From Syntrophomonadaceae bacterium (GTDB lineage Bacteria; Bacillota; Dethiobacteria; DTU022): a stretch of DNA of 64,000 bases. The stretch is from positions 312-64,311 of the forward strand of contig SKMK01000033.1 in the NCBI GenBank assembly GCA_007121075.1, written 5' to 3'. A program made the position numbers and the translations under genes. This document shows positions 19,806 to 43,180 of the stretch, in pieces. The notes under the pieces were generated by a model. The model saw nothing but the letters and a program-made list of their open reading frames with translations, did not search any database and was not told where the DNA came from. How positions within the stretch are numbered: position 1 is the first letter of the stretch; each line of letters starts with the position of its first letter.

Positions 19806-20678
19806 CTATAAACCTTCCTGCTTCAATTCGGCCAGAAAAGATTTCAACCCGGGAGCTAAATCTTTTCTCCTGAGAGCATATTCAATCGTGGCTTCCAGGA
19901 AACCGAGGCGGTCTCCCACATCGTATCGCCGCCCTTCAAATGTATAAGCCCAGACCGGTTGTTGTTCGGCAAGAGTATTTAAAGCATCGGTAAGCTGAAT
20001 CTCTCCTCCCGAACCGGGTGGCGTTTTTTCAAGAATATCAAAGATTTCCGGAACTATAATATAGCGTCCCAGCACGGCCAGGTCAGTTTTGGCCTCTTCC
20101 CGGGAAGGCTTTTCAGTTAAGCGACTGACACTGACCACACTGCCTTCCGGATCATCGGACTCAACCGCCCCGTATTTATGGATGTGATCAAAGCCCACCC
20201 TGCGCACACCCAAAACGGTATTTTCCATTTTCGCATACACATCGGCCATCTGCCCGATGCAGGGAACCCGGGCATGGATCACATCATCGCCAAGCAGGAC
20301 GGCAAAAGGTTCGCTGCCAACAAAACGGCGGGCACATAACACCGCATGTCCCAATCCAAGCGGTTCCTTCTGCCGTACATAAAATATATTGGCCAGAGCA
20401 CTGATCTTTTTCATTTCTTGCAGCTCTTGTTCTTTGTTCTTTTGCCCCAGGGCCTGTTCCAGTTCTATACTTCGGTCAAAGTGATCTTCAATCGATTGTT
20501 TATTGCGGCCGGTAATGATCAGGATATCTTCTATACCTGCATCAACAGCCTCTTCAACAACGTACTGGATAGTCGGCTTGTCTACTATGGGCAGCATTTC
20601 CTTGGGCTGTGCCTTTGAGGCCGGCAGAAAACGGGTTCCCAGGCCCGCAGCCGGTATTACAGCTTTTCTTATTTTCAT
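19806..20678 (-). CDS. galU: UTP--glucose-1-phosphate uridylyltransferase
   Basis: Start moved to MKIRKAVIPAAGLGTRFLPASKAQPKEMLPIVDKP (GGTGG RBS upstream); classic GalU motifs. Confidence 0.85.
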   Translation of the reverse strand: MKIRKAVIPAAGLGTRFLPASKAQPKEMLPIVDKPTIQYVVEEAVDAGIEDILIITGRNKQSIEDHFDRSIELEQALGQKNKEQELQEMKKISALANIFYVRQKEPLGLGHAVLCARRFVGSEPFAVLLGDDVIHARVPCIGQMADVYAKMENTVLGVRRVGFDHIHKYGAVESDDPEGSVVSVSRLTEKPSREEAKTDLAVLGRYIIVPEIFDILEKTPPGSGGEIQLTDALNTLAEQQPVWAYTFEGRRYDVGDRLGFLEATIEYALRRKDLAPGLKSFLAELKQEGL

Positions 20679-20913
20679 CCAACGGTTCACCACCTGGTTT
20701 AGTTTCAGTTTAGAATAGAGAAAATGTGAAAATAGATTTCTACGTACCGCACCAATTTCCCTTCCCACAACCGGATTTTATCGACAGAGAACAAACAAGC
20801 CTCTAATCCGCGGTTTTTTGAAGGATTTGAAGGTAACCCGGGCGAAGTATCGCCTTAAAGGCAAAGTACCAAATCTTAAATACAACTATAATCATCACCG
20901 GGAGGTGCTTGAA

Positions 20914-21951
20914 ATGGAAACAATGCGGGCGGCACAGTTAACAAAGCCGGGAAGGCCGCTGGAACTGGTTGAAGTGTCTATCCCCAGGCCGGAACCGGAC
21001 GAAATTTTATTAAAAGTAAAAGCGGCAGGTATCTGCAGCTCCGATCTGCACTACCAGGACGGAAGAAGCCAGGTCACAAAGCTGCCGATTACCCTGGGCC
21101 ACGAAGTGGCAGGCGAAGTCGTTGAATGCGGCGAAGAAGTAAAGGGGCTCAAGGCCGGTGACCGGGTATGCCTCTTCTACCTGGTTACCTGCGGCGAATG
21201 CATGGCCTGTTGCACTGGAAATGACAATTATTGCAGTGAAGCCGAAATGCTGGGCAAAAATATTGACGGTGGGTTTGCCGAATACCTTACGATTCCGGCC
21301 CGCAATGCTTTCCCTTTTCCGGAATCGATCCCCTATTCCCAGGCTGCCCTCTTAACCGATGCTGTGGCCACACCTTTTCATGCCCTGACCAGGGCCGGGG
21401 TAAAAACAGGAGACAGCGTTTTGATTATTGGCATTGGCGGCCTCGGCCTTCATGCCGTTCAAATCGCAAAAATAATGGGAGCCGGACAGGTCATCGCCAT
21501 GGACCTGGACCGGAACAAGCTGGATCTGGCCCAAAAAGTGGGAGCAACCGCCACGGTTAATCCCAGTCAAGACAATGCTCTAGAAAAAATCAGATCGTTA
21601 CCCGGGGGCGGAGCCGATGTGGCAGCTGAACTAATCGGACTGACCGAAACAGTAAGGCAGGCAATCGACTGCACGGCCGTCGGAGGAAGGACCGTAATTG
21701 TGGGCATCTGTCCTGAAGAGGTAGGGATCAGCCCCTATCACGATCTGCTCCTGAAAGAAAGGACCCTGCTTGGCAGTGCTGATCAAAGCAGGATTGATTT
21801 CCCGGTGATTATCGAACTGGCTGCCCAGAACAGGTTGGATATGTCGTATTCGGTCACCAGGGAGCTGCCTCTGGAAGAAGTTAACCGGGGCCTGGAAATG
21901 CTTAGGGAAAAAGAGGAAAACATAGTCAGGCTGGTTGTAACTTTTCCCTGA
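20914..21951 (+). CDS. Zinc-dependent alcohol dehydrogenase (MDR family)
   Basis: Start at METMRAAQL with GGGAGGTG RBS; GHEVAGEVVECGEEV catalytic Zn motif, structural Zn Cys cluster (CGECMACC), GIGGLG Rossmann. Confidence 0.8.
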   Translation: METMRAAQLTKPGRPLELVEVSIPRPEPDEILLKVKAAGICSSDLHYQDGRSQVTKLPITLGHEVAGEVVECGEEVKGLKAGDRVCLFYLVTCGECMACCTGNDNYCSEAEMLGKNIDGGFAEYLTIPARNAFPFPESIPYSQAALLTDAVATPFHALTRAGVKTGDSVLIIGIGGLGLHAVQIAKIMGAGQVIAMDLDRNKLDLAQKVGATATVNPSQDNALEKIRSLPGGGADVAAELIGLTETVRQAIDCTAVGGRTVIVGICPEEVGISPYHDLLLKERTLLGSADQSRIDFPVIIELAAQNRLDMSYSVTRELPLEEVNRGLEMLREKEENIVRLVVTFP

Positions 21952-21991
21952 GCCCGGCAACCTTTTTACCTGCCGGATAGTGATAAGTATC

Positions 21992-23473
21992 CTATCCGGA
22001 TTCAGTTTCCCAATGGATCCCGTCTCCTTTTTCTACGGTAACCAGGGCTGGAAATTCCTCCCTGACCCTGGCATCGATTTCCGGGGGAACAATCGGCTCA
22101 GAAGGCTCCTGGAGGATCTGCGCAGCAAGTTCTTCCGCCCGCTTCCAGCTGTCCTTGCTCCCGGCATCGATCCAGCGCTGGTAAGGCTGTCGATCGCTGG
22201 CCCGCGGGGCATAACTTTCAGTGCGCATGTACCTGACCGTATGCTCCTCACTGAGATAATTGCCACCGGGTCCAACCCTGGCAATAATATCATAGGCCAG
22301 CGTATCCTGGTTAATTTCAATCCCTCGTAAAGTGCGCAGGCAGCTTCCAACAATATCGTTGTCGATCACATACTGAGCATAAGAAACTGTAAGGGCCCCG
22401 TCGAGCATGCCAAACGCTTCATGAATAAAGTTCCCCCCGGCCAGGGCAGCCAACATGGCCGTAGTTGCTCCTTCATGGGCGGCCTGGGCGTCGGGAAGCT
22501 TGGAGTCGGTGGTGCCTACTGTCAAATAACAGGGCAGGCGGTAATAATGGGCCATCTGGGTAATGGCTGCATTCATCAAACCCGATTCTATACTGCCCAT
22601 CAAGAAAGACATGGTCCGCATATCCATGGTTACCGGTACAGCACTGTACAGGACGGGCGTACCCGGGTTAACCAACTGAGTAAGCATCACTCCCATCAGC
22701 GCTTCGGCATTTTGCTGAACGAGGGTGCCGGCCAGGGTAATCGGCGCCGTCGCTCCGGCGCAAGGAGCAGTCGAAGTAGCCAGGGGAAGGCCGTAGCGAG
22801 CTACTTCCATGATATATTCCGCATGCTCGGGGCTTATTTTTAACGGGCTGTTTATCGATGAAATAAAACCGACAAAGGGCCTGCGCTGTAAATTTTCCAG
22901 CCCCCCGGCGATAATTGAGGCAATTCTAATTGCATCTTCAAGCCCCTGCTTGCTGAAAATACCGCTCATTACCGGTTTTCCGGTATTCAGAAAAGCCTGG
23001 TACTTGGTATTGATACCCACAGTCTCGATATTGATATCATGCGGATAAAGGGGATTGATAAAAAAGTTCAGGTATTCCAGCCTGTCGGCAAGCCGGGCCA
23101 GTTCTGCAACATCGTGGATGGCCCCGGGTCGCTTGTTTCGTTCAAGATCCAAAACATAAAGGGCCAGTCCTCCGGTGCCAAAGTTAACTTTCTTGCCGCC
23201 GATGGTAATATCTTTTCCTTCCTGGCGGCCGTAAAAGACAAACTCGGCCGGAGCTTGTTTGATACAACGGGATACAAGATCCCTGGTCACATAGATCCGG
23301 TGGCGGTCATAATCAACCCTGGCTCCGTTTTTTTCAAACAACTCGAGGGTTGGCTGGTAATTAATTTCAAATCCTACTTTTTCCAGCACCTTGATCGATG
23401 TTTCATGGATCTGGCTTATCTCCTTTTCCGAAAGGACATTATAGCCCCCGCCTTCATAGGTCAATTTTTCCAT
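21992..23473 (-). CDS. MttB-superfamily (trimethylamine methyltransferase-like) corrinoid-dependent methyltransferase, non-pyrrolysine type, paralog 1
   Basis: 493 aa uninterrupted ORF (no amber); TIM-barrel MttB-family similarity along whole length; downstream of Opu transporter and CBS gene on same strand. Confidence 0.75.
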   Translation of the reverse strand: MEKLTYEGGGYNVLSEKEISQIHETSIKVLEKVGFEINYQPTLELFEKNGARVDYDRHRIYVTRDLVSRCIKQAPAEFVFYGRQEGKDITIGGKKVNFGTGGLALYVLDLERNKRPGAIHDVAELARLADRLEYLNFFINPLYPHDINIETVGINTKYQAFLNTGKPVMSGIFSKQGLEDAIRIASIIAGGLENLQRRPFVGFISSINSPLKISPEHAEYIMEVARYGLPLATSTAPCAGATAPITLAGTLVQQNAEALMGVMLTQLVNPGTPVLYSAVPVTMDMRTMSFLMGSIESGLMNAAITQMAHYYRLPCYLTVGTTDSKLPDAQAAHEGATTAMLAALAGGNFIHEAFGMLDGALTVSYAQYVIDNDIVGSCLRTLRGIEINQDTLAYDIIARVGPGGNYLSEEHTVRYMRTESYAPRASDRQPYQRWIDAGSKDSWKRAEELAAQILQEPSEPIVPPEIDARVREEFPALVTVEKGDGIHWETESG

Positions 23474-23526
23474 AGTTCCTGCCCCCCGACAAGCTATATT
23501 TAATAACTATTTGCTTTAATACCCTT

Positions 23527-24024
23527 TTAAGTCTGGTTAATTGTCTCCCATTTTTGTACCATGGCCCTGATTAAATCCGCCCTGGTAATAATCCCTGTTA
23601 GTTTATTGTTTTCGTCGGTTACCGGGATACGATTAATGCCGTTTTCATACATTAAACGGCTTACATCATATACGGGAGCATCTTCTTTAACCGAAATCAC
23701 TTCTGTCGTCATTAAGGTTTCCACGGTTGTGGAAGCAACCAGTTCTATCACTTCCACACCCCGGTGAGTAATATCAACATGGAGGACTTCTTTTCCCTTG
23801 GTAAATACCTGGTGAGGATCGCGCAGGGGCTGGCCGATTATTTGCTGGGTGTAACGAAGGATATCGGTCTCAGATACAACCCCGATTAAGTTATCCTCAT
23901 CATCAGTAACTGGCATTCCGCTAAAACTATTCTCATCCAAAATCTCAGCCGCTCTCTTCAGTGAAGTGTCCGTTTTGACGCTGATCACCGGAGAAGTCAT
24001 AATTTCTTTTGCCAATATCGCCAT
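23527..24024 (-). CDS. CBS-domain (tandem CBS pairs) protein
   Basis: Start at MAILAKEIMTSPV with GGAGGG RBS; four CBS-like repeats. Confidence 0.7.
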   Translation of the reverse strand: MAILAKEIMTSPVISVKTDTSLKRAAEILDENSFSGMPVTDDEDNLIGVVSETDILRYTQQIIGQPLRDPHQVFTKGKEVLHVDITHRGVEVIELVASTTVETLMTTEVISVKEDAPVYDVSRLMYENGINRIPVTDENNKLTGIITRADLIRAMVQKWETINQT

Positions 24025-24114
24025 ACTAATCCCTCCATAAATGCTTGTCAATAGATATTTCAAGCCACCAAAACCTAGCAACCACAAACATTCTTTAAGC
24101 ATTAATACAACAAA

Positions 24115-24144
24115 GGGGCAAGCAAGATTATCCCTGCTTGCCCC
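24115..24144 (-). terminator. Rho-independent terminator-like hairpin after opuAC-type gene
   Basis: Perfect 10-bp GC-rich stem GGGGCAAGCA/TGCTTGCCCC with 10-nt loop, followed on minus strand by TTTGTTGTATT. Confidence 0.5.
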
Positions 24145-24211
24145 CGCATTAACTGGCTGTTTTTCCCTTATTATATTAACTGCTTCATCATTTTACAGTC
24201 TTTTTTTCTGC

Positions 24212-25135
24212 TTACTCAATAAATCCTTCTTCACGCAACCACTCTTCTGCAACTTCTCTCGGAAGTTCTTCTTCCAGGTCAACTTTCATGTTCAGTGAAG
24301 ACATAACTTCCGGGGTCAACACGGCAGCGATGGGATTAAGAATGTCCGGGATTTCAGGAAATTCATCCAGGATATCCTGGCGAACTACCGGAGAACAGTT
24401 GTAAACCGGATGGAATTCCTGGTCGTCTACCAGGTTGACCAGGTTAAACTCAGCAATACGGGCATCTGTAGCAAAGCCCATTGCAGTGGCATGCATCCCA
24501 TCATTCAATGCGCCGTAGGTAATCCCGAGGTCCATAACTTCGTAACTTTCAAATTCAAAACCGTAATGCACCTGCAGCTGCTCCAGGCCGTCATCGCGAG
24601 CTTCGTATTCGTGGTCGGTAGCAAAAGACCATTCGCCCGGTTCGGGAGCTTCTACGCCTTCGTTAATGGCTTCAGCCAGGTCGCTGATTGTTTCGATGCC
24701 CATTTCTTCAGCATCTTCCTGGCGCATCATCACGGTGTAGGTGTTGTTAAACGGTGTCTTCTCCAGCCAGACCAGGTCATTTTCTGTCTGGTCCCATTCT
24801 GCTATGGTGGCATATGCTTCTTCCGGGTCGGTAATTACATCGTGCCCCATGAACTCAACCAGGGCAGTACCGGTGTATTCCCAGTACATCCCGATGTCCC
24901 CTCTTTCCAGGGCTTCACGGGCCACAACAGTACCGCCGAGGTTGGTTTCATCTTCCACCGGGATACCGGCATCTTCCAGGGCAACCAGGGCAATCTGGCC
25001 CAGGATCAACTGCTCGGTAAACTCTTTCGATCCTACTGTCACCGTAGGCTCATCAGGTTCACAGCCCATTACAAACAACGAACCTACCAGGAAAATCAAG
25101 ACTAAAGATAGTGTTAACAATCTTTTAATACTCAT
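24212..25135 (-). CDS. Quaternary-amine (glycine betaine/choline/carnitine type) ABC transporter substrate-binding lipoprotein (OpuAC family)
   Basis: 307 aa; signal peptide + lipobox (LFVMGCEP); OpuAC-type binding fold; in operon with OpuA/OpuC-type permeases and ATPase. Confidence 0.75.
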   Translation of the reverse strand: MSIKRLLTLSLVLIFLVGSLFVMGCEPDEPTVTVGSKEFTEQLILGQIALVALEDAGIPVEDETNLGGTVVAREALERGDIGMYWEYTGTALVEFMGHDVITDPEEAYATIAEWDQTENDLVWLEKTPFNNTYTVMMRQEDAEEMGIETISDLAEAINEGVEAPEPGEWSFATDHEYEARDDGLEQLQVHYGFEFESYEVMDLGITYGALNDGMHATAMGFATDARIAEFNLVNLVDDQEFHPVYNCSPVVRQDILDEFPEIPDILNPIAAVLTPEVMSSLNMKVDLEEELPREVAEEWLREEGFIE

Positions 25136-25280
25136 AAATATAATCTACCCCCTTCTACTCATTTGGTTTGGGAAAACAGCCAAACTCTAACTCTATTTCA
25201 CTTTAACTCTTAACCTTTATTATAACATCCAATCACAAATTTTTGCTAATATATATCAAAGTCTCTCCAAGCTTATATGA

Positions 25281-26003
25281 TTAAGACCAGCGGACAACCC
25301 GTTCTTCGGCTTTGCCAATCAAATAATCCAATAAAATGGCCGTAATAGCAGCAATAACCGCTCCATTCACGATAATCATATCCCGGTGAACTGAAAGCCC
25401 GGTTACGATCAGGTCCCCGAGGCCGCCGCCACCAATAAAGGTAGCCAGGGTGGCAGCACCGACATTAATCACGATAGCAGTCCTGAGGCCGGCCACAATA
25501 ATCGGAAAAGCGATCGGCAGTTCAATCCTGGTTAAAATGCGTAAGGGACGCATACCCATTCCCCTGGCCGCTTCAATAATACTGTGTTCAACACCGTCTA
25601 TACCGGCAAAAGTGTTCCTCAGAATGGGCAAAATCGAGTAGAGAAACAGGGCAAATACCGCCACCCTGAATCCCAGGCCTAATATGGTATAGAAAAGAGC
25701 CAGCACGGCCAGGCTGGGCACAGTCTGGCCGATGTTGACTATGGTTTCCATTACCCGGCCGATCCGGTACAGGCTGGGGCGGGACAGCATAATCCCCCCG
25801 GCCACACCGACGATCGTGGCCCCGGTCATCGAAACCAGGAGCAGGCCCATATGCTCCCTGATCACTCTAAAGACTCGCTCATAGGTGAGCATCCGGGCCA
25901 CGATGGAATCAGGAGGGTTATTGACAGAATAGATAACAATTGCTGCTGCAATTCCGATCATGATCAGCGGAATTCCGATCCAAACCCACAAAGTCCGTAG
26001 CAT
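25281..26003 (-). CDS. Quaternary-amine ABC transporter permease (OpuCD/OpuBD-like)
   Basis: 240 aa, 6 TM, ABC permease EAA-like motif (EAARGMGMRPLRILTRIELP). Confidence 0.8.
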   Translation of the reverse strand: MLRTLWVWIGIPLIMIGIAAAIVIYSVNNPPDSIVARMLTYERVFRVIREHMGLLLVSMTGATIVGVAGGIMLSRPSLYRIGRVMETIVNIGQTVPSLAVLALFYTILGLGFRVAVFALFLYSILPILRNTFAGIDGVEHSIIEAARGMGMRPLRILTRIELPIAFPIIVAGLRTAIVINVGAATLATFIGGGGLGDLIVTGLSVHRDMIIVNGAVIAAITAILLDYLIGKAEERVVRWS

Positions 26004-26005
26004 GA

Positions 26006-27124
26006 TTAGCTATCCTCCCTGACCACGTTGAGCAGGTCGCCCAGGGTGATTGTTCCTTGATACTTCTCATCTTCGTTAACTACGGCCACATAACCTTCAC
26101 CAATCTCAAGCATAACCGAAAGGGCATCGTTCAAAGTGGCATCGTCGGTTACCGTATCGGATACTTCCTGGAAGTAATCGCCTGCCACTTCACCTGTTTT
26201 TCGTTTTAGATCATTTACCCCGATAACTCCTTTCAGCTTGTTATCGCGATCGACAACTATAACCGTCCTGATATCACTTTCATCAAGCCGTTTTTTAACC
26301 TCTTCTTCCTTTGTGTCTTCCTTGAGTGCCGGTGCCCTGTCGACTTCTTCCAAAATTTCGCTGACCCGGATCAGGTGCAACCGCTTAATGGAGCGGTTCC
26401 TTCCTACCAGGTTTGATACAAATTCATCGGCCGGCGCGCTGAGCAAATCGCTCGGAGTGGCGTGCTGGACCAGTTCACCTTCTCTCATCACAGCGATGGT
26501 ATCGCTCATTTTAATCGCTTCATCAATATCGTGGGTAACGAAAACGATGGTTTTATCCACCCTTTCCTGGATCCTTAAAAACTCGTTCTGCAAGCGAGCC
26601 CTGGTGATCGGGTCAACCGCGCCGAAGGGCTCGTCCATGAGCATGATCGGCGGATCGGAAACCATCGCCCGGGCCACGCCGACCCTTTGCCTCTGGCCGC
26701 CGCTCAGGGCCGAAGGATAGCGATTTTTAAAAATTTCCGGGTCGAGTCCTACCAGGCTCATCACGTTATCTACTTTTTCTTTTACCTGGTCTTTGGGCCA
26801 CTGTTTTTCATTGGGGACGGTAGCGATATTTTCATAAATTGTCATGTGGGGAAACAACCCGATTTCCTGGATCACATAGCCAATATCCAGGCGCAGTTTT
26901 ATCGGGTCCATTTGAAGGGCGTCTTCACCCCGGATATATATCTTCCCCCCGGTTGGTTCATAAAGGCGGTTAATCATTTTCATGGTTGTAGTTTTTCCGC
27001 ACCCTGAAGGGCCAACCAGGACACAAACATCCCCCTCATTTACTTCCAGGTTCAGGTCCTTGACCGCGGGAATATTATGCCCCTTGAAAACTTTAGTCAA
27101 TCCTTCCAATTTTATCATGTTCAA
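26006..27124 (-). CDS. Glycine betaine/proline-type ABC transporter ATP-binding protein with C-terminal CBS domains (OpuAA/OpuCA-like)
   Basis: 372 aa; Walker A GPSGCGKTT, signature LSGGQRQRVGVARA, Walker B IMLMDEPFGAVD, tandem CBS at C-terminus. Confidence 0.85.
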   Translation of the reverse strand: MNMIKLEGLTKVFKGHNIPAVKDLNLEVNEGDVCVLVGPSGCGKTTTMKMINRLYEPTGGKIYIRGEDALQMDPIKLRLDIGYVIQEIGLFPHMTIYENIATVPNEKQWPKDQVKEKVDNVMSLVGLDPEIFKNRYPSALSGGQRQRVGVARAMVSDPPIMLMDEPFGAVDPITRARLQNEFLRIQERVDKTIVFVTHDIDEAIKMSDTIAVMREGELVQHATPSDLLSAPADEFVSNLVGRNRSIKRLHLIRVSEILEEVDRAPALKEDTKEEEVKKRLDESDIRTVIVVDRDNKLKGVIGVNDLKRKTGEVAGDYFQEVSDTVTDDATLNDALSVMLEIGEGYVAVVNEDEKYQGTITLGDLLNVVREDS

Positions 27125-27858
27125 TTCCCCTCCCTTGTGCTGCCTTCTACGGAAAACCGCTTCTCTCCATAATAGAGGAGGTAATCGAAGGCAATTGCGA
27201 TTATGGATACCCCGATTGCACCGGCAATAATCATCGGCTGGTGTCCCCTGGAAATACCGGAAAAGATCAGCTCACCCAGTCCGCCTGCTCCTACATAAGC
27301 GGCAATAGCGGCAATACCGATCATCATAACCGCTGCAGTCCGAACCCCGGCCATGATTACAGGCCTGGCCAGAGGGATTTTAATTTTGAAGAGAATACGC
27401 CGCTCCGTCATTCCCATTCCCTTGGCCGCTTCAACAATCGCCGGATCTAGCTCCCTGATCCCGGTATATGTATTTCTAACAACCGGCAGTAAGCTGTAAA
27501 GAACCAGGGCTACCACCCCGGTAGTAAAACCGATCCCAAACAATGGAACCATAAAGGCAAGCATGGCCATACTGGGAATAACCATCAAAACCTGGCATAT
27601 CCCCAGAACAGTTTGAGCAAGGCTTTCATAGTAGCTGATAATTATACCGATCGTTACAGATATGGTTACTGCAATTATCAAGGTCAATATAACCAGCCAG
27701 AGGTGTTCAAGCATCAATTCCAAAATCAAGTCACTTCGACGAGAAATGTAGTCAATCGTGTGGGCAATAATACCCCGGTCTCCTGCCTGGGCTATCGACT
27801 CAATGCCATTTCCCGCCGCCCTGAATGCATCAAACGCCATCCCTAATAATTGGTCCAT
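27121..27858 (-). CDS. Quaternary-amine ABC transporter permease (OpuCB/OpuBB-like)
   Basis: 245 aa; EAAKGMGMTERRILFKIKIP motif; overlaps ATPase start by 4 nt. Confidence 0.8.
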   Translation of the reverse strand: MDQLLGMAFDAFRAAGNGIESIAQAGDRGIIAHTIDYISRRSDLILELMLEHLWLVILTLIIAVTISVTIGIIISYYESLAQTVLGICQVLMVIPSMAMLAFMVPLFGIGFTTGVVALVLYSLLPVVRNTYTGIRELDPAIVEAAKGMGMTERRILFKIKIPLARPVIMAGVRTAAVMMIGIAAIAAYVGAGGLGELIFSGISRGHQPMIIAGAIGVSIIAIAFDYLLYYGEKRFSVEGSTREGN

Positions 27859-28234
27859 GAATCAGCAATCACCCTCTCTGTATTTTATATTTCAATTCAT
27901 TTAAGTAACCGGGTAGCCCCTGTTGTTTAAGTACTTACTATGTTGATTTAAATAGACCCGGGATAATCTTCTGGGAAGAACCCCAGTTAATTAAAATTGC
28001 GAAGTTTTATAAACTGTAAAATTCTATGTGGGTATTCTAGTTTCCTGGTATTTTATAAAATTATTTCACATATAAACCACGGTTACAACTAATACATTTA
28101 GTAGTAATTAGCTTTAAAACGTCATTATCCGGGCCTATTTATAGTTTTCGCCACATGAATACCTGTAAAGCGGATCCTTGTGGCGAAAACCTTATAAACA
28201 ATGAATATTTACTCTATACAGCCGGAATTCAACT

Positions 28235-29482
28235 TTATTTAACAATCTGGATTATACCAACCAGTCCATGGCCCAGGCCGTGACCCTGCTGAAGGTTCAT
28301 TTCCAGGCTGCGAATGGCATATCCGAGCTGGGCTTCGATCAAGTCGGCCCTGATATCACCGTAAAGCCCTTTGCTACCTTCCAGGCTCTGCCGCATAACC
28401 CGGTACGCTTTCTCCAGGGGTTTTACATCGGTTTGCGGGGGATAGGGCAGCAGTTCCTCGTCACTGTCATAATTCTCCATCAGGACCATGGTATAATCGA
28501 CCAGGTCATTCCAGCTGTCGGCCAGCCTCTGGAGGGATTCATTCTGCCAGTCAAACCCTTCCCTGGGTTTGTAGTTTACTTTGAGATCCGGAAAATAGGT
28601 CCTCAAACCGCGCTCAAAGAGGGATGAAACCATCAGGCGCAGAGGTTGAGAATTGCCGTTATAGGTGCCGGTCTCGATGTGCCTGCCCACAAACAGGGAG
28701 CGGTCAAAAAATCGCAATACTTTCAGTTCCACTCCAGCCTTTCGGGCCGCACTTTCCAGGATCCTAAAAACCTCAGCCGGTGTCATAAGCCGCAGTGGAA
28801 ATGAAGACAGATCTACATTATCCCTGTCTTCCTCCTCATAGAGGTAATTAATTACGTAGTCGATATAGGAAATTTCTTCCGGATCATGAGTCCACAGGTT
28901 TTGCCACTCATATGAATAGCGGCCCAGAAAGTCAGCCAGGATCAGGCTTCCGTTGTTACCGTGCTTACCCATATCTACAAACAACTTTTCCAGCTCTTCA
29001 TTAGTGCAGTGAGAAAGAGTCCCGTAGGAAGTGAAATAAAGATCGTACGGCTCTTCGCCTTCGTCCAGGGGCAGGCCGTTTGAAAAATCTCCCTTACAGA
29101 AATTAACATGGTCATAATCGCCAAACAGGGTTTCAGCTTCTTTAAGCAATTCAATGCTTAAATCAATGCCCTTATACTGGTCCATCATGTCGTCTTTGAT
29201 TAAGCGGGTATCAAACTGGGACAACCTGGCTCCCCTGGCCATGTTGCTGAGCAGTTCATATCCGTCGCCTGTTCCACAGCCCAGGTCATAAAAACGCAAC
29301 CCTTCGCCAATTTTATTGACTTTCATTTTTACAATATCTTCTATATAGGGCCTGAGATAGTATTTAGTAATAAAATCTTCAAACTGGGTCCGGACATGGT
29401 CGTACTTGCCGCGCAAACTCCTTACGTGTTCGCTGTACCTCCCATGTCGTATCGCTTCTTGATAAGCCTTATCGGCATCCAT
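28235..29482 (-). CDS. Class I SAM-dependent methyltransferase with large C-terminal extension, translationally linked to corrinoid protein
   Basis: Start placed at Met24 (AGGAGGG RBS; 1 nt after corrinoid-protein stop); motif I FYDLGCGTGDG, post-I D (GIDLS), motif II YDLYFTSYGTL; ~230 aa C-terminal region without recognisable motifs. Confidence 0.7.
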   Translation of the reverse strand: MDADKAYQEAIRHGRYSEHVRSLRGKYDHVRTQFEDFITKYYLRPYIEDIVKMKVNKIGEGLRFYDLGCGTGDGYELLSNMARGARLSQFDTRLIKDDMMDQYKGIDLSIELLKEAETLFGDYDHVNFCKGDFSNGLPLDEGEEPYDLYFTSYGTLSHCTNEELEKLFVDMGKHGNNGSLILADFLGRYSYEWQNLWTHDPEEISYIDYVINYLYEEEDRDNVDLSSFPLRLMTPAEVFRILESAARKAGVELKVLRFFDRSLFVGRHIETGTYNGNSQPLRLMVSSLFERGLRTYFPDLKVNYKPREGFDWQNESLQRLADSWNDLVDYTMVLMENYDSDEELLPYPPQTDVKPLEKAYRVMRQSLEGSKGLYGDIRADLIEAQLGYAIRSLEMNLQQGHGLGHGLVGIIQIVK

Positions 29483-29483
29483 G

Positions 29484-30185
29484 CTAACTTTTCCCTCCTG
29501 ATTGTAATAATTTTTCTGCCACCCGGATGGCGGCAAAAGCATCTTTTCCATACCCGTCGGCGCCTATCTCGGCCGCAAAATCATCGGAAGTCGGTGCTCC
29601 ACCAATTATAACCTTAACTTTATCGCGAAGTCCTTTCTTCTCAAGTTCCTTGACAACATTTTCCATGTTAACCATGGTGGTGTTGAGCAGGGCCGAAAGC
29701 CCAACCAGATCCGCTTTTTCTTGCTCGGCCGCTTCTACGATCCGGGCGGCAGGTACATCAATGCCCAAATCTACTACATTAAAACCTGCTCCTTTAAGCA
29801 TAATTGACACCAGGTTTTTACCGATATCATGCAGGTCTTTTTCTACTGTCGCCATGATTACTTTTCCTTTGCCTTCACTTTCACCTGCACTGGCCAGGTG
29901 CGGTTCCATGACTTTCATGCCTGCTTCAACAGCTTCTGCAGCGGTTAGCATATCCGGGATAAAGTATTCCCCTGTTTCATATTTTTCCCCGACCTGCTCC
30001 ATGCCTTTGCTCAGACCTTCAAGCAGAATCGTATTTGTATCGATCCCGTTATCCAGTGCTTCCTGGACCAGTTCCGCCACTCCCGCCTTGCCGGCATAAT
30101 CTTCTTCAATACCTTCGTCATCCTTATTGCGGCGCCCCTGCAGGACATTTTCCACTATGCGTTTAATCAGTTCTTCCTTCAACAT
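29484..30185 (-). CDS. Cobalamin-binding corrinoid protein (MtgC/MttC-type)
   Basis: 233 aa; B12-binding_2 helical cap then Rossmann B12 domain with DxHxxG (DLHDIGKNLV), SxL and GG motifs; strong RBS TAAGGAGGAAGA. Confidence 0.85.
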   Translation of the reverse strand: MLKEELIKRIVENVLQGRRNKDDEGIEEDYAGKAGVAELVQEALDNGIDTNTILLEGLSKGMEQVGEKYETGEYFIPDMLTAAEAVEAGMKVMEPHLASAGESEGKGKVIMATVEKDLHDIGKNLVSIMLKGAGFNVVDLGIDVPAARIVEAAEQEKADLVGLSALLNTTMVNMENVVKELEKKGLRDKVKVIIGGAPTSDDFAAEIGADGYGKDAFAAIRVAEKLLQSGGKS

Positions 30186-30279
30186 TCTTCCTCCTTAACT
30201 TCGCAGTCATTTATTATTAAATCAATATAGCCTACCATGCGTGTTCACACGATCCGTTAAAATACTTTTTGTAAAAAAT

Positions 30280-30313
30280 CTTTGTTATACAACCCTGTGG
30301 TTGTATAACAAAG
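30280..30313 (-). promoter_or_regulatory. Perfect 15-bp inverted repeat (CTTTGTTATACAACC-ctgt-GGTTGTATAACAAAG) between mttB paralog 2 and corrinoid gene
   Basis: Read directly from sequence; followed on minus strand by GATTTTTTAC; could be internal attenuator/processing hairpin or operator. Confidence 0.45.
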
Positions 30314-30327
30314 GATACCTGCCACTT

Positions 30328-31863
30328 TTATTTTGCATACGGATTTAAACGGGGCAGCAATCCGGGTATCTGCTCAAAAATACGCTTGCAAATATCTTCT
30401 GAGAGGTGTTCCGGTTGCTGTTTTTCTAGTTCTTTTAACTTGTCATGGGCTGCCAGCAAAGTCTGATCTTCTTCTTCCAAATCACCTTCAAAGGGGAAAC
30501 CGGGAAAGATTTCGCCGCGGCGCAGCATCTTACGGGCAAAACGGGCATAGAGCCTGTAAGGACTGTTCATTACTTCTTCGATCATACTCTTTATCCGTCC
30601 GGCCTCTCCTGCTTCCACACCACTTTCCCGGTAAAGTGACTTAACCATAGCAATCTGATGGTTTTCAAGAACAGCCTGCTCCGGAGAAAAAGTTTGTGTT
30701 TTATCCAACAAACCAAAGGCATAATGAATTAAATCAGGTGCTGAAGAGGGAACTGCTGTGTAAGTAAACATTTTTTCCACGGCCGCCTGAACACCCGGCA
30801 CCTTTGCATCGCCAACACCGGCGGTTGAATAACAAGGCACTTTGTAATACCGGGCCATCTGGGCACAGATCATGTTATAATGACAAAATTCAGGCACACC
30901 ATACATGTCGTGCAGATCATCCATGCGCGCTCGTACCGGCACTGCACCATAAATAACCGGTGCTCCCGGATTGGTCAGCTGGTTGATTACTATTCCTGCT
31001 AAAGTTTCCGCATTTACCTGTGCCGCCATACCAAATTCTTCTATTGGGGCCGTTGATCCACCCTGAGGTGAAGTGGAAATAATAACTGGTAAACCTAACT
31101 TAGAAATGGCCATCAGTTTGTCTGCAGTTTCGTCCACTATTTGTAAAGGACTCTTGATCACACTGGTAATAAATGTCACTATCGGATTTTTGATCAGTTG
31201 TTCGCGCCCGCCTGTTATTATTTCAGCCATGGCAACTACGTTTTCAAGTTGTTCGGGATCGGCTACCCCGCTAACTATCGGCTTGGTAGTATAGTTTAAG
31301 GCGGCAAAAAAAACATTGACATCCTTATTTTCGCCACTGATATCGGAATCCTGTACATTAACGTTGCGAAGGAAAAAATCTAAGTTCTCAAGTTGTTCTG
31401 CAAGATGCGCTGAGCGACAAAGATATTCCAGGCTGCCCCGGTTTTTTTTCATTACCGGAAAGACCTGTTCTCGTCCATCCTGCTTGGAAACAAAAGTCTC
31501 CGGCTCAACTTCCAACCAGTAGTTGGTTTCCGAACCGGTGCCAAAATAAACTCTTGAACCCTCAGCATCCATAACAACCTGATTTTCCGGTTTTCTTGCT
31601 CCAAGAGTTACCTTTGTCGGAGCACTATCCAGCGCCTTCTGAACCACTTTTTCCGGAATACTTACCCACCAGGCATCGTGCTCTCCCTCACGTGTTTTCT
31701 TGGCAGTGGCACCTGCTTTTTCCAACAATGCAACTGCTTCTTCGTTGTAACAGAGAATACCCGGCGTTTCTAAAAGATCTAAAGATGTTTGGTGAACCAG
31801 TTCAACCTGTTCTTGACTTAAACGTTCATACGGCTTAGATACTACTACTCCTCTTTCACTCAA
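30328..31863 (-). CDS. MttB-superfamily corrinoid-dependent methyltransferase, non-pyrrolysine type, paralog 2
   Basis: 511 aa uninterrupted ORF; MttB family similarity (compare paralog 1: ...YFGTG...SPL.I... conserved blocks); first gene of operon with corrinoid protein. Confidence 0.75.
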   Translation of the reverse strand: MSERGVVVSKPYERLSQEQVELVHQTSLDLLETPGILCYNEEAVALLEKAGATAKKTREGEHDAWWVSIPEKVVQKALDSAPTKVTLGARKPENQVVMDAEGSRVYFGTGSETNYWLEVEPETFVSKQDGREQVFPVMKKNRGSLEYLCRSAHLAEQLENLDFFLRNVNVQDSDISGENKDVNVFFAALNYTTKPIVSGVADPEQLENVVAMAEIITGGREQLIKNPIVTFITSVIKSPLQIVDETADKLMAISKLGLPVIISTSPQGGSTAPIEEFGMAAQVNAETLAGIVINQLTNPGAPVIYGAVPVRARMDDLHDMYGVPEFCHYNMICAQMARYYKVPCYSTAGVGDAKVPGVQAAVEKMFTYTAVPSSAPDLIHYAFGLLDKTQTFSPEQAVLENHQIAMVKSLYRESGVEAGEAGRIKSMIEEVMNSPYRLYARFARKMLRRGEIFPGFPFEGDLEEEDQTLLAAHDKLKELEKQQPEHLSEDICKRIFEQIPGLLPRLNPYAK

Positions 31864-32326
31864 TCGTCCAGCCCGGTTATTTTCCCGGGCTGTTCACCTC
31901 CTTTGGTTGCTTTAATAACACCGGCATATTTTAGGAAAGCGGGTAAATGCTAAAAATAAAAAAAACCGTATTACATCGTTCAGGGCGCGCCTGATTCTGA
32001 TTGTTATACGGGTGCTTTATAAAAGCATTCAATATAATCCGGCCCGTTTACCGGGGGCGCCTTCCTATTACTGCCAGATCTTGGTACATTAAATTCTATA
32101 TTATTATGTCATAATGTATACCTTTTCGCAAAAGGGAAACAAGGTAGTATAACCAAGAATTACACCCTTATCTAGAGTATTTACTGATTAACCATGGAAA
32201 TATTAAGCAAATAACTCACAAAAAAGGGGTCATGTGAGCCTGTAGACATATTTGAGCTGAGCACATGGACCAGTATCATAGTTGTGTTATAATAAGTGGT
32301 AATTTGAAAGGAACGGGTATTAATTC

Positions 32327-33268
32327 ATGAGGAATCTTGCCGGCCGGGTAGCCGAAAAAATAACAGAAAACCGTGATTTAAGGAAGCCCTCCGAAAGAAG
32401 CCGGGTCGGGATCATTGAAAGCTGGGTGGGATTGGGCGGCAATATCTTCTTAGCCCTGTTAAAATTAGTTTTTGGTCTGCTTACCAACAGTATTGCCCTG
32501 ATAGCTGACGCAGTCCACAGCGCATCTGATATTTTCTCCTCGCTGATTGTTTTGATCGGCTTCCTGCTGGCCGGCAAAAAAGCAGACAGCGAACATCCTC
32601 ATGGACACGGCCGGACCGAGTATCTGGCCGGACTGGTCATTGGACTAATGCTGATCGGGGCCGGAGGAGCCTTTGTATACGGGGCCTACAACAGGCTGGC
32701 CGGCGAGGTTTTTGCCACACCTTCCCTCGCCTCCATTGTTGCAGTTATTGCCGCCATTATTATAAAAGAATTTATGTATTTTTTTTCTTCCCGGCTTGGC
32801 AGCCTGATCGATTCTGAAACGCTGGAAGGTGATGCCTGGCATCACCGTACCGACTCCCTTTCTTCAGCCCTGGTTTTAATAGCGCTGATCGGAGGGTATT
32901 TTGGGTTTTACGTCCTTGATGCTTTTTTCGCCATAGCCATCGCTCTTTTTATAATCTTTACAGGAATTAGGATTGTCCGCAACTCATGCAGCCGGCTTCT
33001 TGGCACCTCTCCGGCAAACGAGCTGGAAGAAGGCGTCGTCAAACGCGCCAAAGAAATTGACGGTGTTATCGACGCCCACCGGTTGGAAGTCCATGATTAC
33101 GGCTCCTGGAAAGTGCTTACCATCCATATCGAGGTTGACGGCCGGTTGAGCCTGGAAGAAGCTCATGAGATTGCCCAGAAGGTGGAAGATCATGTGTGCA
33201 ATAAGTATCATTGTGATACAATCGTCCACCTTGACCCTGCCGAAGATTTCACTCCTTCAGAACAATAA
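32327..33268 (+). CDS. Cation diffusion facilitator (CDF) family metal efflux transporter
   Basis: 313 aa; 6 TM with HSASD/ HxxxD metal-binding motifs (ADAVHSASDIFSS; HGHGRTEY), C-terminal cytoplasmic domain. Confidence 0.8.
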   Translation: MRNLAGRVAEKITENRDLRKPSERSRVGIIESWVGLGGNIFLALLKLVFGLLTNSIALIADAVHSASDIFSSLIVLIGFLLAGKKADSEHPHGHGRTEYLAGLVIGLMLIGAGGAFVYGAYNRLAGEVFATPSLASIVAVIAAIIIKEFMYFFSSRLGSLIDSETLEGDAWHHRTDSLSSALVLIALIGGYFGFYVLDAFFAIAIALFIIFTGIRIVRNSCSRLLGTSPANELEEGVVKRAKEIDGVIDAHRLEVHDYGSWKVLTIHIEVDGRLSLEEAHEIAQKVEDHVCNKYHCDTIVHLDPAEDFTPSEQ

Positions 33269-33296
33269 GCCGCTCACGGCGGCTTTTTTAAATACC

Positions 33297-33506
33297 TCAG
33301 CCTCCACCACCAAAGCCAATACTCTGAACTACACCCTCTTCAACAACTACTGGGACCTTGTCGGCCTTGTATTCCTGGCGGGCCCTTTTTAAAGCTTCCC
33401 TGTCCGCGCTAACATTGTAGAGTTTATAATCTATGCCTTTCTTTTTGAGCACTTCAATTTGCTTCTCGCAGTACGGGCAGCCGTCCTTCACATAAACCTC
33501 AAGCAT
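33297..33506 (-). CDS. Glutaredoxin-like protein (CPYC thioredoxin fold)
   Basis: Start placed at MLEVYVKDGCPYCEK (GGAGGTG RBS); 69 aa; longer 111-aa ORF has hydrophobic N-terminus but no RBS. Confidence 0.6.
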   Translation of the reverse strand: MLEVYVKDGCPYCEKQIEVLKKKGIDYKLYNVSADREALKRARQEYKADKVPVVVEEGVVQSIGFGGGG

Positions 33507-33777
33507 TTCAACACCTCCGTAAAAATATATTCCAAGAGTTTTAATTCCAGGCAACTGAGTCAACAGCCGGGTAATGAGCATACAAGCAAACAATACTGTT
33601 TCCATTATAGTTGTCCACCCCGACACTGGCAAGAAGACGGGGCACTGTCTAAAAGATTTGCTAAGAAAAATGGCATGTTGTGCCCCATAAGGCCGTGTCT
33701 AAACACATTAACTACATCATGTGCTACCCAAATGATATAATTCAAACCAGGGAAAGGCACAAGACCTGACCCCATTA

Positions 33778-33840
33778 TGTATGTGTCGGTGTCCTGTATG
33801 TGTCGGTGTCCTTGACTTTAAAGCTGCGCTTGATTATAAT
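33778..33840 (+). promoter_or_regulatory. nadE promoter: tandem 17-bp direct repeat (TGTATGTGTCGGTGTCC x2) abutting consensus sigma-A promoter TTGACT-17-TATAAT
   Basis: Repeats at 33778-33794 and 33795-33811; -35 TTGACT 33812-33817; -10 TATAAT 33835-33840; ~95 nt upstream of nadE ATG. Confidence 0.6.
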
Positions 33841-33873
33841 TCTCCCAGAATAAACTTGTACTCTAAACGGGAA

Positions 33874-33911
33874 AATTGCTCACGGGGAAACTCGCATTCC
33901 CGTGAGCAATT
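33874..33911 (+). promoter_or_regulatory. 13-bp perfect inverted repeat in nadE 5' leader (AATTGCTCACGGG-N12-CCCGTGAGCAATT)
   Basis: Between the TATAAT box and the GGGGAGG RBS of nadE; operator or RNA hairpin. Confidence 0.5.
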
Positions 33912-33933
33912 AATATAGGGGAGGATTTATCAG

Positions 33934-42568: not shown

Positions 42569-43180
42569 TTATTTTCGCAACACAAAAAGCAGCTCTTCAG
42601 CTTCCCTGCTGTCTGCAGGCAAATCCACAGGCCGGGAACGGTTATTGCTCCAGGCATAACCGTCAACTATTCCAACCCCATGTTCATCAACCCAGTCCAG
42701 GAAATCAAAGAGGGTAAACAGGTGAATGTTAGGAGTTTCATACCACTGGTAAGGCAGCGATGAAGTGACAGGCATCCTTCCTGTGCTCTTTAATGTATCT
42801 ACAACCTCCCGGTAATTGAAATTGGGAAATGTAACAATGCAGGATTTGCCTATTCTCAGCATTTCTTCCATCACCACCATGGGCCGATAAAGGACCTGCA
42901 GGGTTTTTTCTAAAACAACATAATCAAAAGACCCGGTCTTAAACTCCGGCAGGCCCCGGTCCATATCTTTTTGATAAACGTCTACGCCGGCGCATATTGC
43001 CTCCCCAACCCGGCCGGGATCCGCTTCAACTGCCTGGCCGCATACCTGCTTCTGTTTAACCAGGCGGGCCAGCAGCTCTCCGCCGCCGCAGCCCAGGTCC
43101 AGGACAGAAGAACCTGGTTCGATTAGTTTATAGATCAGGCAGTGATCCCAACGTTTGTGATTGGCCATGTTTAACCGCAC
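42569..43180 (-). CDS. metW: Methionine biosynthesis protein MetW
   Basis: 203 aa; SAM-MTase-like fold VLDLGCGGGELL, MetW family; overlaps metX end. Confidence 0.8.
   Translation of the reverse strand: MRLNMANHKRWDHCLIYKLIEPGSSVLDLGCGGGELLARLVKQKQVCGQAVEADPGRVGEAICAGVDVYQKDMDRGLPEFKTGSFDYVVLEKTLQVLYRPMVVMEEMLRIGKSCIVTFPNFNYREVVDTLKSTGRMPVTSSLPYQWYETPNIHLFTLFDFLDWVDEHGVGIVDGYAWSNNRSRPVDLPADSREAEELLFVLRK

Follow-up and report, generated by a model that had tools for sequence, protein, structure and literature searches.

Do genes for the import of a quaternary amine and genes for its demethylation serve one pathway when they lie side by side? The question is raised by a 64-kb stretch of DNA (the window, to which all coordinates refer) from an uncultured soda-lake Syntrophomonadaceae bacterium of hypersaline origin, in which a gene for a methyltransferase of the MttB superfamily follows the genes of an importer of the Opu type. 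We found that this run of six genes forms the downstream two-thirds of a larger cluster of nine on the minus strand (21992-31863). The order of the cluster, 5' to 3', is MttB2, a corrinoid protein, a methyltransferase-like protein that we call P415, an OpuC-type ATP-binding cassette (ABC) importer, a CBS-pair protein and MttB1. On balance we lean, by a small degree of confidence, towards the view that this conserved cluster couples the uptake of a betaine-like quaternary-amine osmolyte to its corrinoid-dependent demethylation. The same protein set is also present in the metagenome-assembled genome (MAG) GCA_007126875.1. The nine genes, with families assigned by Pfam and NCBIfam hidden Markov model searches of the window proteins, are the following.

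30328..31863, minus strand: MttB2, 511 amino acids (aa), TTG start; homologue of the MttB-superfamily methyltransferase I without pyrrolysine (non-Pyl); PF06253, 212 bits
29484..30185, minus strand: corrinoid (B12-binding) protein, MtgC-like, 233 aa; PF02310 and PF02607; sole corrinoid protein of the cluster
28235..29482, minus strand: P415, class I S-adenosylmethionine (SAM)-methyltransferase-like, 415 aa; weak Methyltransf_25 match; starts 1 nt after the corrinoid stop
27121..27858, minus strand: ABC permease 1 (OpuCB/ProW-like), 245 aa; PF00528, 87 bits; best NCBIfam matches ProW and choline permeases
26006..27124, minus strand: ABC ATPase with C-terminal tandem CBS domains (OpuCA/ProV type), 372 aa; TIGR01186, PF00005 and, twice, PF00571
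25281..26003, minus strand: ABC permease 2, 240 aa; PF00528 (BPD_transp_1), 81 bits
24212..25135, minus strand: substrate-binding lipoprotein, OpuAC family, F-III quaternary-amine type, 307 aa; PF04069, 185 bits
23527..24024, minus strand: stand-alone CBS-pair protein, 165 aa; PF00571 twice, 125 bits
21992..23473, minus strand: MttB1, 493 aa; non-Pyl MttB-superfamily methyltransferase I homologue; PF06253 (MTTB), 382 bits

All six genes of a preliminary description of this DNA are present where it had placed them on the minus strand, and their families agree with Pfam and NCBIfam. That description had ended the run at 27858; MttB2, the MtgC-like corrinoid protein and P415 extend the cluster upstream on the same strand to 31863. 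Its importer and methyltransferase, said to be physically fused, are adjacent genes on one strand rather than a gene fusion, and its term operon is too strong for a run that is split by a terminator-like hairpin.

In the mechanism that we favor, the OpuC-type importer, composed of an aromatic-cage lipoprotein, two permeases and a CBS-gated ATPase, would take up the amine. MttB2 and MttB1 would each demethylate a substrate and load the methyl group onto the one MtgC-like corrinoid protein in its Co(I) state; they might act on different amines or on products formed one after the other during demethylation. The methyl group would then reach tetrahydrofolate and the Wood-Ljungdahl pathway via a methyltransferase II (MT II) encoded elsewhere in the genome. 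As the dedicated partner of MttB1, the CBS protein would most likely be a regulatory, ligand-sensing subunit, and its sensing would keep an osmoprotectant solute from untimely degradation. The conserved hairpin would partly uncouple transcription of the upstream genes from that of the CBS-MttB1 pair.

The importer is the component with the clearest family relations. The ATPase passes the model TIGR01186 (proV subfamily) with 358.8 bits compared to a cutoff of 326.6; its gene call on the source contig, 370 aa compared to 372 aa here, fits an ATG two codons downstream of TTG. The binding protein carries a signal peptide and an FVMGC lipobox-like sequence. Its closest solved relatives are quaternary-amine binders without exception (Thermoanaerobacter OpuBC-derived sensor scaffolds, OsmF, OpuCC, A. 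fulgidus ProX and EgtUC); the top one scores only 165 bits. The motifs YWEYTGT, FNNTYT, GFATD and HPVY align with YVEYTGH, FNNTYT, AWATD and FPPYY of the Thermoanaerobacter OpuBC scaffold and conform to the cage motifs YxEYTG, NNTY, (F/W)ATD and PxY. The predicted aromatic-cage and carboxylate-contact residues are K37, Y87, T90, N131, Y133, F221 and Y245; by alignment and spacing, the motifs fit K242/F293/T296/N339/Y341/Y419/Y443 of EgtUC (PMC9732360). The cage motifs and the four-component layout (two permeases, a binding protein and an ATPase with tandem CBS domains) are shared with OpuC/OpuB of Bacillus subtilis, OsmU/YehZYXW, A. fulgidus ProX and EgtU. In contrast to those F-III importers, the cassette is embedded in a methyltransferase cluster, and the binding protein stays below the cutoff of the OsmF (YehZ) equivalog NF049931 (186.8 bits compared to 400). 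Judged by these features, the importer is a genuine osmoprotectant system of the OpuC/OpuB type, with a binding protein that belongs to the quaternary-amine F-III group and not to an amino-acid clade; the TIGR01186 score and the F-III cage motifs bear out the quaternary-amine importer of the preliminary description. Two relatives carry tandem binding-protein genes, ~75-90 % identical to the window protein, in otherwise identical clusters (locus L017, 3485-5510; locus L020, 7044-9084), which suggests a diversified ligand specificity.

The two methyltransferase paralogs were compared with the characterized members of their superfamily. Both pass PF06253 (cutoff 25), over residues 10-471 in MttB1 and 10-433 in MttB2, and both stay below the cutoff of 525 bits of TIGR02369, the equivalog of the Pyl-dependent MttB (438.4 and 239.8 bits). 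As had been described, they are clearly diverged from each other, with 34 % identity over 390 aa in BLASTP and 31 % over the full alignment. Among solved structures, MttB1 matches MtgB of D. hafniense best (302 bits, 34.6 % identity), with Pyl-containing MttB second (225 bits, 30 %). For MttB2, both of these matches are weaker (127 and 115 bits), and the overall identity is 27 % to MtgB and 26 % to Pyl-dependent MttB. The TTG start of MttB2 has its sole good Shine-Dalgarno sequence, AAAGGAGGTGAA, more than 30 nt upstream (31863-31912, minus strand), and a small hairpin, CCCGGGAAAATAACCGGG, lies between the two and could bring them together. A second structure follows the gene.

30280..30313, minus strand: AT-rich 15-pair hairpin followed by ATTTTTT, between MttB2 and the corrinoid gene, from a terminator-like scan of this window

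Neither paralog requires pyrrolysine, in agreement with the preliminary description. Both open reading frames (ORFs) are free of internal stops, including UAG, and the Pyl334 column is occupied by Thr321 in MttB1 (ACC, 22511-22513) and by Val350 in MttB2. One feature of the MttB1 gene is nevertheless shared at the nucleotide level with Pyl-MttB, past the Pyl column.

22414..22518, minus strand: Rfam PYLIS_3 match within the MttB1 coding sequence, 53.2 bits (gathering score 38)

We rejected it as a functional pyrrolysine element: the UAG aligned to PYLIS_3 is not in the reading frame (codon 319, position 2) and the match meets the coding register only with a 5-nt insertion, so that it reflects conserved coding sequence and not a Pyl insertion element. 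A PYLIS_3 match alone is accordingly poor evidence of Pyl decoding.

The active sites differ from that of MtgB at each of the positions that matter for glycine betaine. In MtgB, Y97 and F356 contact this substrate by cation-pi interaction and R312 and H348 bind its carboxylate; an Arg equivalent to R312 is reported to be conserved in MtgB, MtcB, MtpB, MtyB and MthB, and the H348E variant of MtgB is almost inactive (PMC13080624). The corresponding columns, read from a MAFFT alignment that included 120 MttB1 relatives, are as follows.

MtgB Y97: G102 in MttB1, S111 in MttB2; Gly in 120/120 MttB1 relatives
MtgB R312: Y316 in MttB1, Y345 in MttB2; Tyr in 120/120 MttB1 relatives
MtgB H348: E352 in MttB1, Y381 in MttB2; Glu, Gln, Asp or Asn in the MttB1 relatives
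MtgB F356: A360 in MttB1, T389 in MttB2; Ala, Gly or Ser in the MttB1 relatives

The full signatures are G99-T100, G102, Y316, T321 (Pyl column), H351, E352 and A360 for MttB1, and S111, Y345, V350 (Pyl column), H380, Y381 and T389 for MttB2; the latter, SYVHYT, recurs in 24 ORFs of related loci. Tyr occupies the R312 column in 132 of the 141 distinct MttB-family ORFs of the fetched loci, with the MtgB signature in just one. In a set of 143 diverse superfamily representatives, only the MtgB clade bears the canonical Y-R-L-L-H-aromatic signature, and Arg stands at the R312 column in only 25; the dozen clusters nearest MttB1 are of the G-Y-x-H type, and the remaining ones show many other signatures. 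In a rough neighbor-joining tree of 148 sequences without bootstrap support, MttB1 and MttB2 fall into a 30-member, mostly Tyr-type clade that excludes MtgB, the S. meliloti homologue and true MttB, and MtgB and S. meliloti 4YYC form an 8-member all-Arg clade. The conserved active-site residues of true MttB include the Gly110-Thr111 cis-peptide and the catalytic Tyr364 (PMC9842639). The Gly-Thr pair (within FGTG) is kept as G99-T100 in MttB1 and G108-T109 in MttB2, MttB Tyr329 is kept in both, and the catalytic Tyr is replaced by His351 and His380, respectively.

By these sequence criteria, MttB1 and MttB2 are members of the MttB superfamily that lie outside every characterized subfamily, in an uncharacterized Tyr/His-type clade, and the best label for both is MtxB in the sense of the MAGICdb authors (PMC10653893). 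BLASTP, the alignment and the rough tree agree that the two do not group tightly with any one characterized enzyme. The phylogenetic placement and active-site comparison that had been proposed could be carried out for MtgB and true MttB, both of which lie outside the clade of the paralogs in the neighbor-joining tree; the E. limosum enzymes were judged by their reported Arg. The candidate substrates listed in the preliminary description find no support, as they are those of the Arg-bearing enzymes and both paralogs lack the MtgB residues, including this Arg. Since the MtgB residues are replaced and Gly and Tyr are common to all 120 relatives, no substrate can be assigned to MttB1, and because Arg-less members are common across the superfamily, the absence of Arg alone identifies none either. 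The substrate is probably bound otherwise than glycine betaine is in MtgB.

These pockets raise the possibility that the substrates of MttB1 and MttB2 are not acidic quaternary amines at all but amines that are non-acidic or have already lost part of their methyl groups; examples would be choline, tertiary amines such as dimethylglycine and a cation resembling trimethylamine, handled without pyrrolysine, perhaps by the two paralogs in sequence, in a Tyr/His-type pocket with Glu, Gln or Asp in MttB1. The Arg that is reported to be conserved in all enzymes for acidic substrates is indeed absent, both paralogs resemble true MttB rather than MtgB at G110-T111 and Y329 and have a conserved His for the catalytic Y364 (PMC9842639), one corrinoid protein serves two methyltransferase I (MT I) paralogs, and glycine betaine- and dimethylglycine-specific paralogs have been proposed for strain DCMF. 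However, in a superfamily so heterogeneous that Arg is found in only 25/143 representatives its absence predicts little, and the binding protein retains its carboxylate-contact residues. To our knowledge, tertiary-amine demethylation without pyrrolysine also lacks a biochemical precedent in the MttB family. We consider such substrates quite improbable.

The remaining element of a demethylation system within the cluster is the corrinoid protein. Its translation holds the cobalt-ligand motif DxHxxG in the form DLHDIG. It scores 209 bits with the MtgC model NF047996 (cutoff 370) and 207.3 bits with TIGR02370, just under the cutoff of 215.3, and is below the cutoffs of the MtgC exception models as well. 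Neither an MT II of the pterin-binding or MtrH/MtgA type nor a RamA/RACE-type activase was found within the 64-kb window. The window consequently falls short of a full three-component system of MT I, corrinoid protein, MT II and activase.

The reading as coupled uptake and demethylation nonetheless describes a familiar type of system. Genes for CODH/ACS and for the Wood-Ljungdahl methyl branch are present in the host lineage (PMC6146748), and strain DCMF provides a precedent: on glycine betaine it induces clusters that combine several MttB-type methyltransferases with corrinoid proteins and betaine transporters (PMC9768040). A DCMF homologue that is 51 % identical (L089) was considered as part of one of these betaine-induced clusters and rejected, as its gene order and approximate genome position do not match. 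Like the MtgBCA clusters of D. hafniense (DSY3154-3157), Acetobacterium woodii (Awo_c07520-07560) and Ca. Formimonas warabiya DCMF (Ga0180325_114734-42), which occur in Wood-Ljungdahl anaerobes, the cluster brings together a non-Pyl MttB-type MT I, a corrinoid protein and a quaternary-amine transporter, and like strain DCMF it holds several MT I paralogs (PMC9768040). It differs from them in having an OpuC-type ABC importer instead of a BCCT carrier, in lacking an MtgA or RACE/RamA gene, and in its extra conserved CBS-pair protein and P415. In contrast to MtgB, MttB1 (35 % identity) and MttB2 (27 %) have none of Y97/R312/H348/F356 and lie outside the all-Arg MtgB clade. With Pyl-MttB of Methanosarcina barkeri (PDB 7XCL), both paralogs share FGTG with the Gly110-Thr111 cis-peptide position and Tyr329, and MttB1 the nucleotide sequence matched by PYLIS_3 (53 bits); unlike it, they have no UAG or Pyl, carry His for Tyr364 and stay below the TIGR02369 cutoff, at identities of 30 % (MttB1) and 26 % (MttB2). 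The E. limosum MtpB, MtcB, MtyB and MthB systems, for proline betaine, carnitine, gamma-butyrobetaine and phosphocholine, likewise pair a non-Pyl MT I with a corrinoid protein, possibly with an accessory enzyme such as the kinase MthK (PMC12155760). The window paralogs, which have Tyr at the reported Arg, are set apart from these enzymes by that reported residue (PMC13080624) and not by direct alignment. Overall, the cluster type is already known from D. hafniense, A. woodii and DCMF; its distinguishing traits are the transporter type, the CBS protein and P415, the absence of MtgA and RamA, and the active-site signature.

In order to obtain information on the conservation of this arrangement, we scanned species-representative genomes, which yielded 80 related loci, and compared these and three others by tblastn. 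Nearly all of the 80 loci are MAGs labeled Syntrophomonadaceae from the series T1Sed, B1Sed and CSSed. These series are hypersaline soda-lake sediment metagenomes from which more than 50 Syntrophomonadaceae-related MAGs have been reported, and in the two most abundant Syntrophomonadaceae-related populations there, CODH/ACS and the Wood-Ljungdahl methyl branch are both encoded (PMC6146748). Grouped by identity to MttB1, the loci gave the following counts.

MttB1 identity of at least 75 %: CBS gene directly upstream in 27/27, ABC cassette directly upstream in 16/19, MttB2 in 13/14, corrinoid protein in 13/14, P415 in 12/14
MttB1 identity of 55-75 %: CBS gene directly upstream in 15/26, ABC cassette directly upstream in 1/14, MttB2 in 3/8, corrinoid protein in 3/8, P415 in 0/8

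The identical nine-gene order was found in L003, L013, L020-L024, L026, L033, L038, L041 and L042. In L016, L025, L014 and L019, P415 is followed directly by CBS-MttB1, and L014 and L019 carry a paralogous ABC cassette (~50-60 % identity) upstream of MttB2. L003 (1522-20453; ~80 % identity) combines the full nine-gene cluster with two more MttB paralogs and a second complete ABC cassette, which is directly followed by an MttB1-type gene (71 % identity) with no CBS gene and then by a divergent sigma-54/PAS activator. Other orders in which an Opu-type ABC importer is joined to this MttB group occur in L039, L076, L081, L083 and Zhaonella formicivorans (L005), and two bins labeled Kiritimatiellae (L065, L082) have the order CBS-MttB1-MttB-MttB2-P415-ABC. 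In Z. formicivorans (CP085524, 6426-19234), genes for a sigma-54/PAS activator and two Tyr-type MttB proteins come first; behind them lie a class I glutamine amidotransferase, an MmgE/PrpD-family protein and the Opu-type ABC genes, of which the ATPase gene is split by an IS110 transposase. Histidine-utilization and glutamate mutase genes flank the region.

The ABC cassette thus behaves as a movable module, and the tightest and constant partner of MttB1 is the CBS protein, not the transporter. Because importer and methyltransferase are joined in several gene orders, their link exceeds chance. The earlier notion of a substrate-dedicated uptake and demethylation unit is supported by the adjacency of the importer in 16/19 close relatives; it needs revision in so far as the constant partner of MttB1 is the CBS protein and MtgA and RamA are missing from the 64 kb.

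The CBS protein itself was delimited as follows. Although the mechanical ORF reaches 24102, a start at the ATG of position 24024 is indicated by its GGAGGG ribosome-binding site and by the source-contig annotation, which likewise gives 165 aa. Both repeats carry a G-h-h-(S/T)-x-x-D motif (GVVSETD and GIITRAD), and such motifs of CBS domains fit the binding of an adenosyl ligand. With the c-di-AMP-binding CbpB/DarB equivalog NF041630 the protein scores 44.4 bits, below the cutoff of 125. It is not a recent copy of the CBS module of the ATPase, to which it is just 23 % identical. No report of a CBS-MttB partnership was found in the literature searched. Two elements precede its gene.

24114..24145, minus strand: GC-rich hairpin, terminator-like here, ~90 nt 5' of the CBS start
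24023..24051, minus strand: TTGACA-N17-TA(G/A)TAT element from a promoter-like scan, between the hairpin and the CBS start

Of the 14 base pairs in the stem of the hairpin, 8 are G-C; the loop measures 4 nt, and the tail is TTGTTGTATT. The hairpin folds at -29.4 kcal/mol (z = -5.35), and none of 200 shuffled sequences folds as well. Its core, GGGCAAGCAGG...CTTGCTTGCCC, is present upstream of the CBS gene in ~25 relatives, and the RNAalifold consensus has 9 pairs, 5 of which show compensatory double changes. We conclude that the hairpin is real and under selection, which confirms the terminator-like structure that the preliminary description had placed between transporter and CBS-MttB. It does separate them in this window, but it marks more than the end of the transporter, since in L014, L016 and L019 it stays before the CBS gene even though P415, instead of the binding-protein gene, comes ahead of it. 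Being kept without a preceding transporter gene, it belongs to the CBS-MttB1 junction. The stem is followed by UUUGUUGU in the window, and about one third of the relatives have no U-run right after it (for example L026, L029, L030, L035, L041 and L042). Termination is the likely role of the hairpin in this window, perhaps among others. A motif, AAGGGAAAAACAGCC, stands just 5' of the hairpin in most relatives (24146-24175, minus strand, in the window; alignment A3); L019, where the upstream gene is P415 and not the binding-protein gene, has a degenerate copy. The TTGACA of the second element is strongly conserved across relatives (alignment A3, 26 loci). The GGAGGG ribosome-binding site falls within the spacer of this element, and the second hexamer overlaps the CBS ATG; several relatives have the 9-nt palindrome ATTGACAAT as the core. 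The element might act as a promoter or bind a regulator.

The division of the run at this junction might also mean that the importer serves osmoprotection only, as an ordinary compatible-solute importer, and that CBS-MttB1 is a separate unit with an unrelated substrate that merely shares its neighborhood. The CBS module of the ATPase is typical of osmoregulated Opu transporters, and a strong conserved hairpin divides the two units. In L014, L016, L019 and L025 the cassette is missing, relocated or exchanged for another, its adjacency to MttB1 falls to 1/14 at 55-75 % identity, and a 60 %-identical homologue stands alone beside Mrp antiporter genes (L007). However, Opu-type ABC genes are found beside MttB genes of this group in six or more gene orders, distant taxa included. 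Loss of the cassette from its normal position goes along with a paralogous one at the opposite end of the cluster in L014 and L019, and the second cassette of L003 leads directly into an MttB1-type gene with no CBS gene between. We regard osmoprotection alone as rather unlikely.

The AlphaFold2 model of P415 (pLDDT 86.7, pTM 0.88) has an extra, unmatched C-terminal helical domain, and over the N-terminal ~250 aa the best Foldseek matches are small-molecule SAM-dependent N-methyltransferases; the best sequence match in the PDB has E = 0.3. The family is widespread, with more than 900 members whose sole annotation is 'class I SAM-dependent methyltransferase', and includes homologues in the haloalkaliphiles Natranaerobius thermophilus, where it has no MttB neighbor, and N. 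trueperi. A triad of MttB2-type, corrinoid and P415 genes recurs in the deltaproteobacterium Desulfoferrobacter suflitae, next to a pterin-binding methyltransferase, a MetH activation-domain protein and two Asn-synthase homologues as well as SAM synthetase (MetK), S-adenosylhomocysteine (SAH) hydrolase, TrkAH and a BON-MscS channel (L012). Counterparts of P415 lie at 10001-11266 of L012 and at 10001-11269 of L011. We considered P415 as the missing methylcorrinoid:tetrahydrofolate methyltransferase and rejected this role, as it has a class I SAM-methyltransferase fold without pterin-binding or MtrH similarity, and Desulfoferrobacter has a separate pterin-binding gene beside it. The 377-nt gap ahead of the first permease gene contains, just 3' of the P415 stop, an inverted repeat of 12 pairs, GTTTTCGCCACA ... 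TGTGGCGAAAAC, around a loop of 24 nt (28141-28189, minus strand), with no U-tract after it.

The fold of P415, nearest to small-molecule N-methyltransferases, would fit an island for osmolyte homeostasis, in which P415 makes a compatible solute by SAM-dependent N-methylation, the importer scavenges it, MttB1 and MttB2 remove it with the corrinoid protein when osmolarity falls and thereby regain its methyl groups, and the CBS protein is the switch. The neighborhood of the Desulfoferrobacter triad (SAM synthetase, SAH hydrolase, TrkAH and the BON-MscS channel, L012) and the homologues in the two Natranaerobius haloalkaliphiles agree with such a role, and a complete route of glycine-betaine synthesis was not found in Ca. 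Syntrophonatronum (PMC6295475). On the other hand, P415 shows no specific similarity to glycine, sarcosine or dimethylglycine N-methyltransferases, its PDB match (E = 0.3) and Foldseek matches are generic, the N. thermophilus homologue is without an MttB neighbor, and a start 1 nt past the corrinoid gene suits an action of P415 on the corrinoid protein equally well. We hold this proposal to be very doubtful.

Several of the above results weigh against the coupling of uptake and demethylation, which we still prefer. All four residues that bind glycine betaine in MtgB are absent from both paralogs, and the Glu of MttB1 at the H348 column is the very residue that makes MtgB nearly inactive (H348E; PMC13080624). 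The Lys and Thr that contact the betaine carboxylate in EgtUC are kept in the binding protein. In the A. fulgidus ProX structure, Lys and Thr reportedly contact the carboxylate as well. This pair hints at a carboxylate-bearing betaine, which would fit awkwardly with the enzyme pockets; because the binding protein keeps these contacts and the enzymes lack the MtgB residues, the imported solute may differ from the MttB substrates. Furthermore, an importer of the osmoregulatory type with a CBS-gated ATPase could serve osmoprotection alone, the ABC cassette is adjacent in just 1/14 loci at 55-75 % MttB1 identity, and the close relatives are phylogenetically near, so that their synteny is partly inheritance rather than selection. 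Finally, neither an MT II nor a RamA-type activase lies within 64 kb, and the role of P415 in the cluster is left unexplained by coupled uptake and demethylation.

Going further, MttB1-type enzymes with their obligate CBS partner might be ligand-gated demethylases for a new substrate class, a non-acidic or partly demethylated amine handled without pyrrolysine in a Tyr/His-type pocket closer to that of true MttB than to that of MtgB. The CBS protein, through an adenosyl ligand, c-di-AMP or ionic strength, would decide whether the osmolyte is kept or consumed, and P415 would either make the substrate or service the corrinoid protein. This is distinctly unlikely in our estimation.

Regarding regulation, a permissive Rfam search of 20000-34000 gave the PYLIS_3 match within MttB1 and nothing else, so that no riboswitch or other known RNA was found in the intergenic regions. 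A sigma-54 promoter was considered because sigma-54/PAS activators adjoin related clusters, and was rejected: the cluster region has no intergenic -24/-12 match, only two matches with two mismatches that both lie within coding sequence (23831-23846 and 25350-25365), and sigma-54-type matches are rarer across the window than expected by chance (19 compared to 33.6). At 11 kb from the cluster, methionine-biosynthesis genes for MetW, a homoserine O-acetyltransferase-like alpha/beta hydrolase and an O-acetylhomoserine sulfhydrylase-type PLP enzyme (42569-45700, minus strand) were noted, with no link to the cluster shown.

Overall, the genomic association is sensible but unsurprising and does not constitute a new mechanism. 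Its significance lies in the ecology and in the enzyme family concerned. In anoxic sediments of saline sites, betaine-type osmolytes are major sources of carbon, nitrogen and methyl groups, and what becomes of them affects methane formation. In the MttB superfamily, only a handful of many subfamilies have known substrates, all sharing one arginine. The cluster indicates that an abundant soda-lake lineage has two Tyr/His-type members tied to a quaternary-amine importer, a dedicated CBS protein and a SAM-methyltransferase-like protein. It supplies specific proteins with which the known substrate range of the superfamily could be extended, and it offers a way to examine how cells spare a solute that is needed for osmotic balance.

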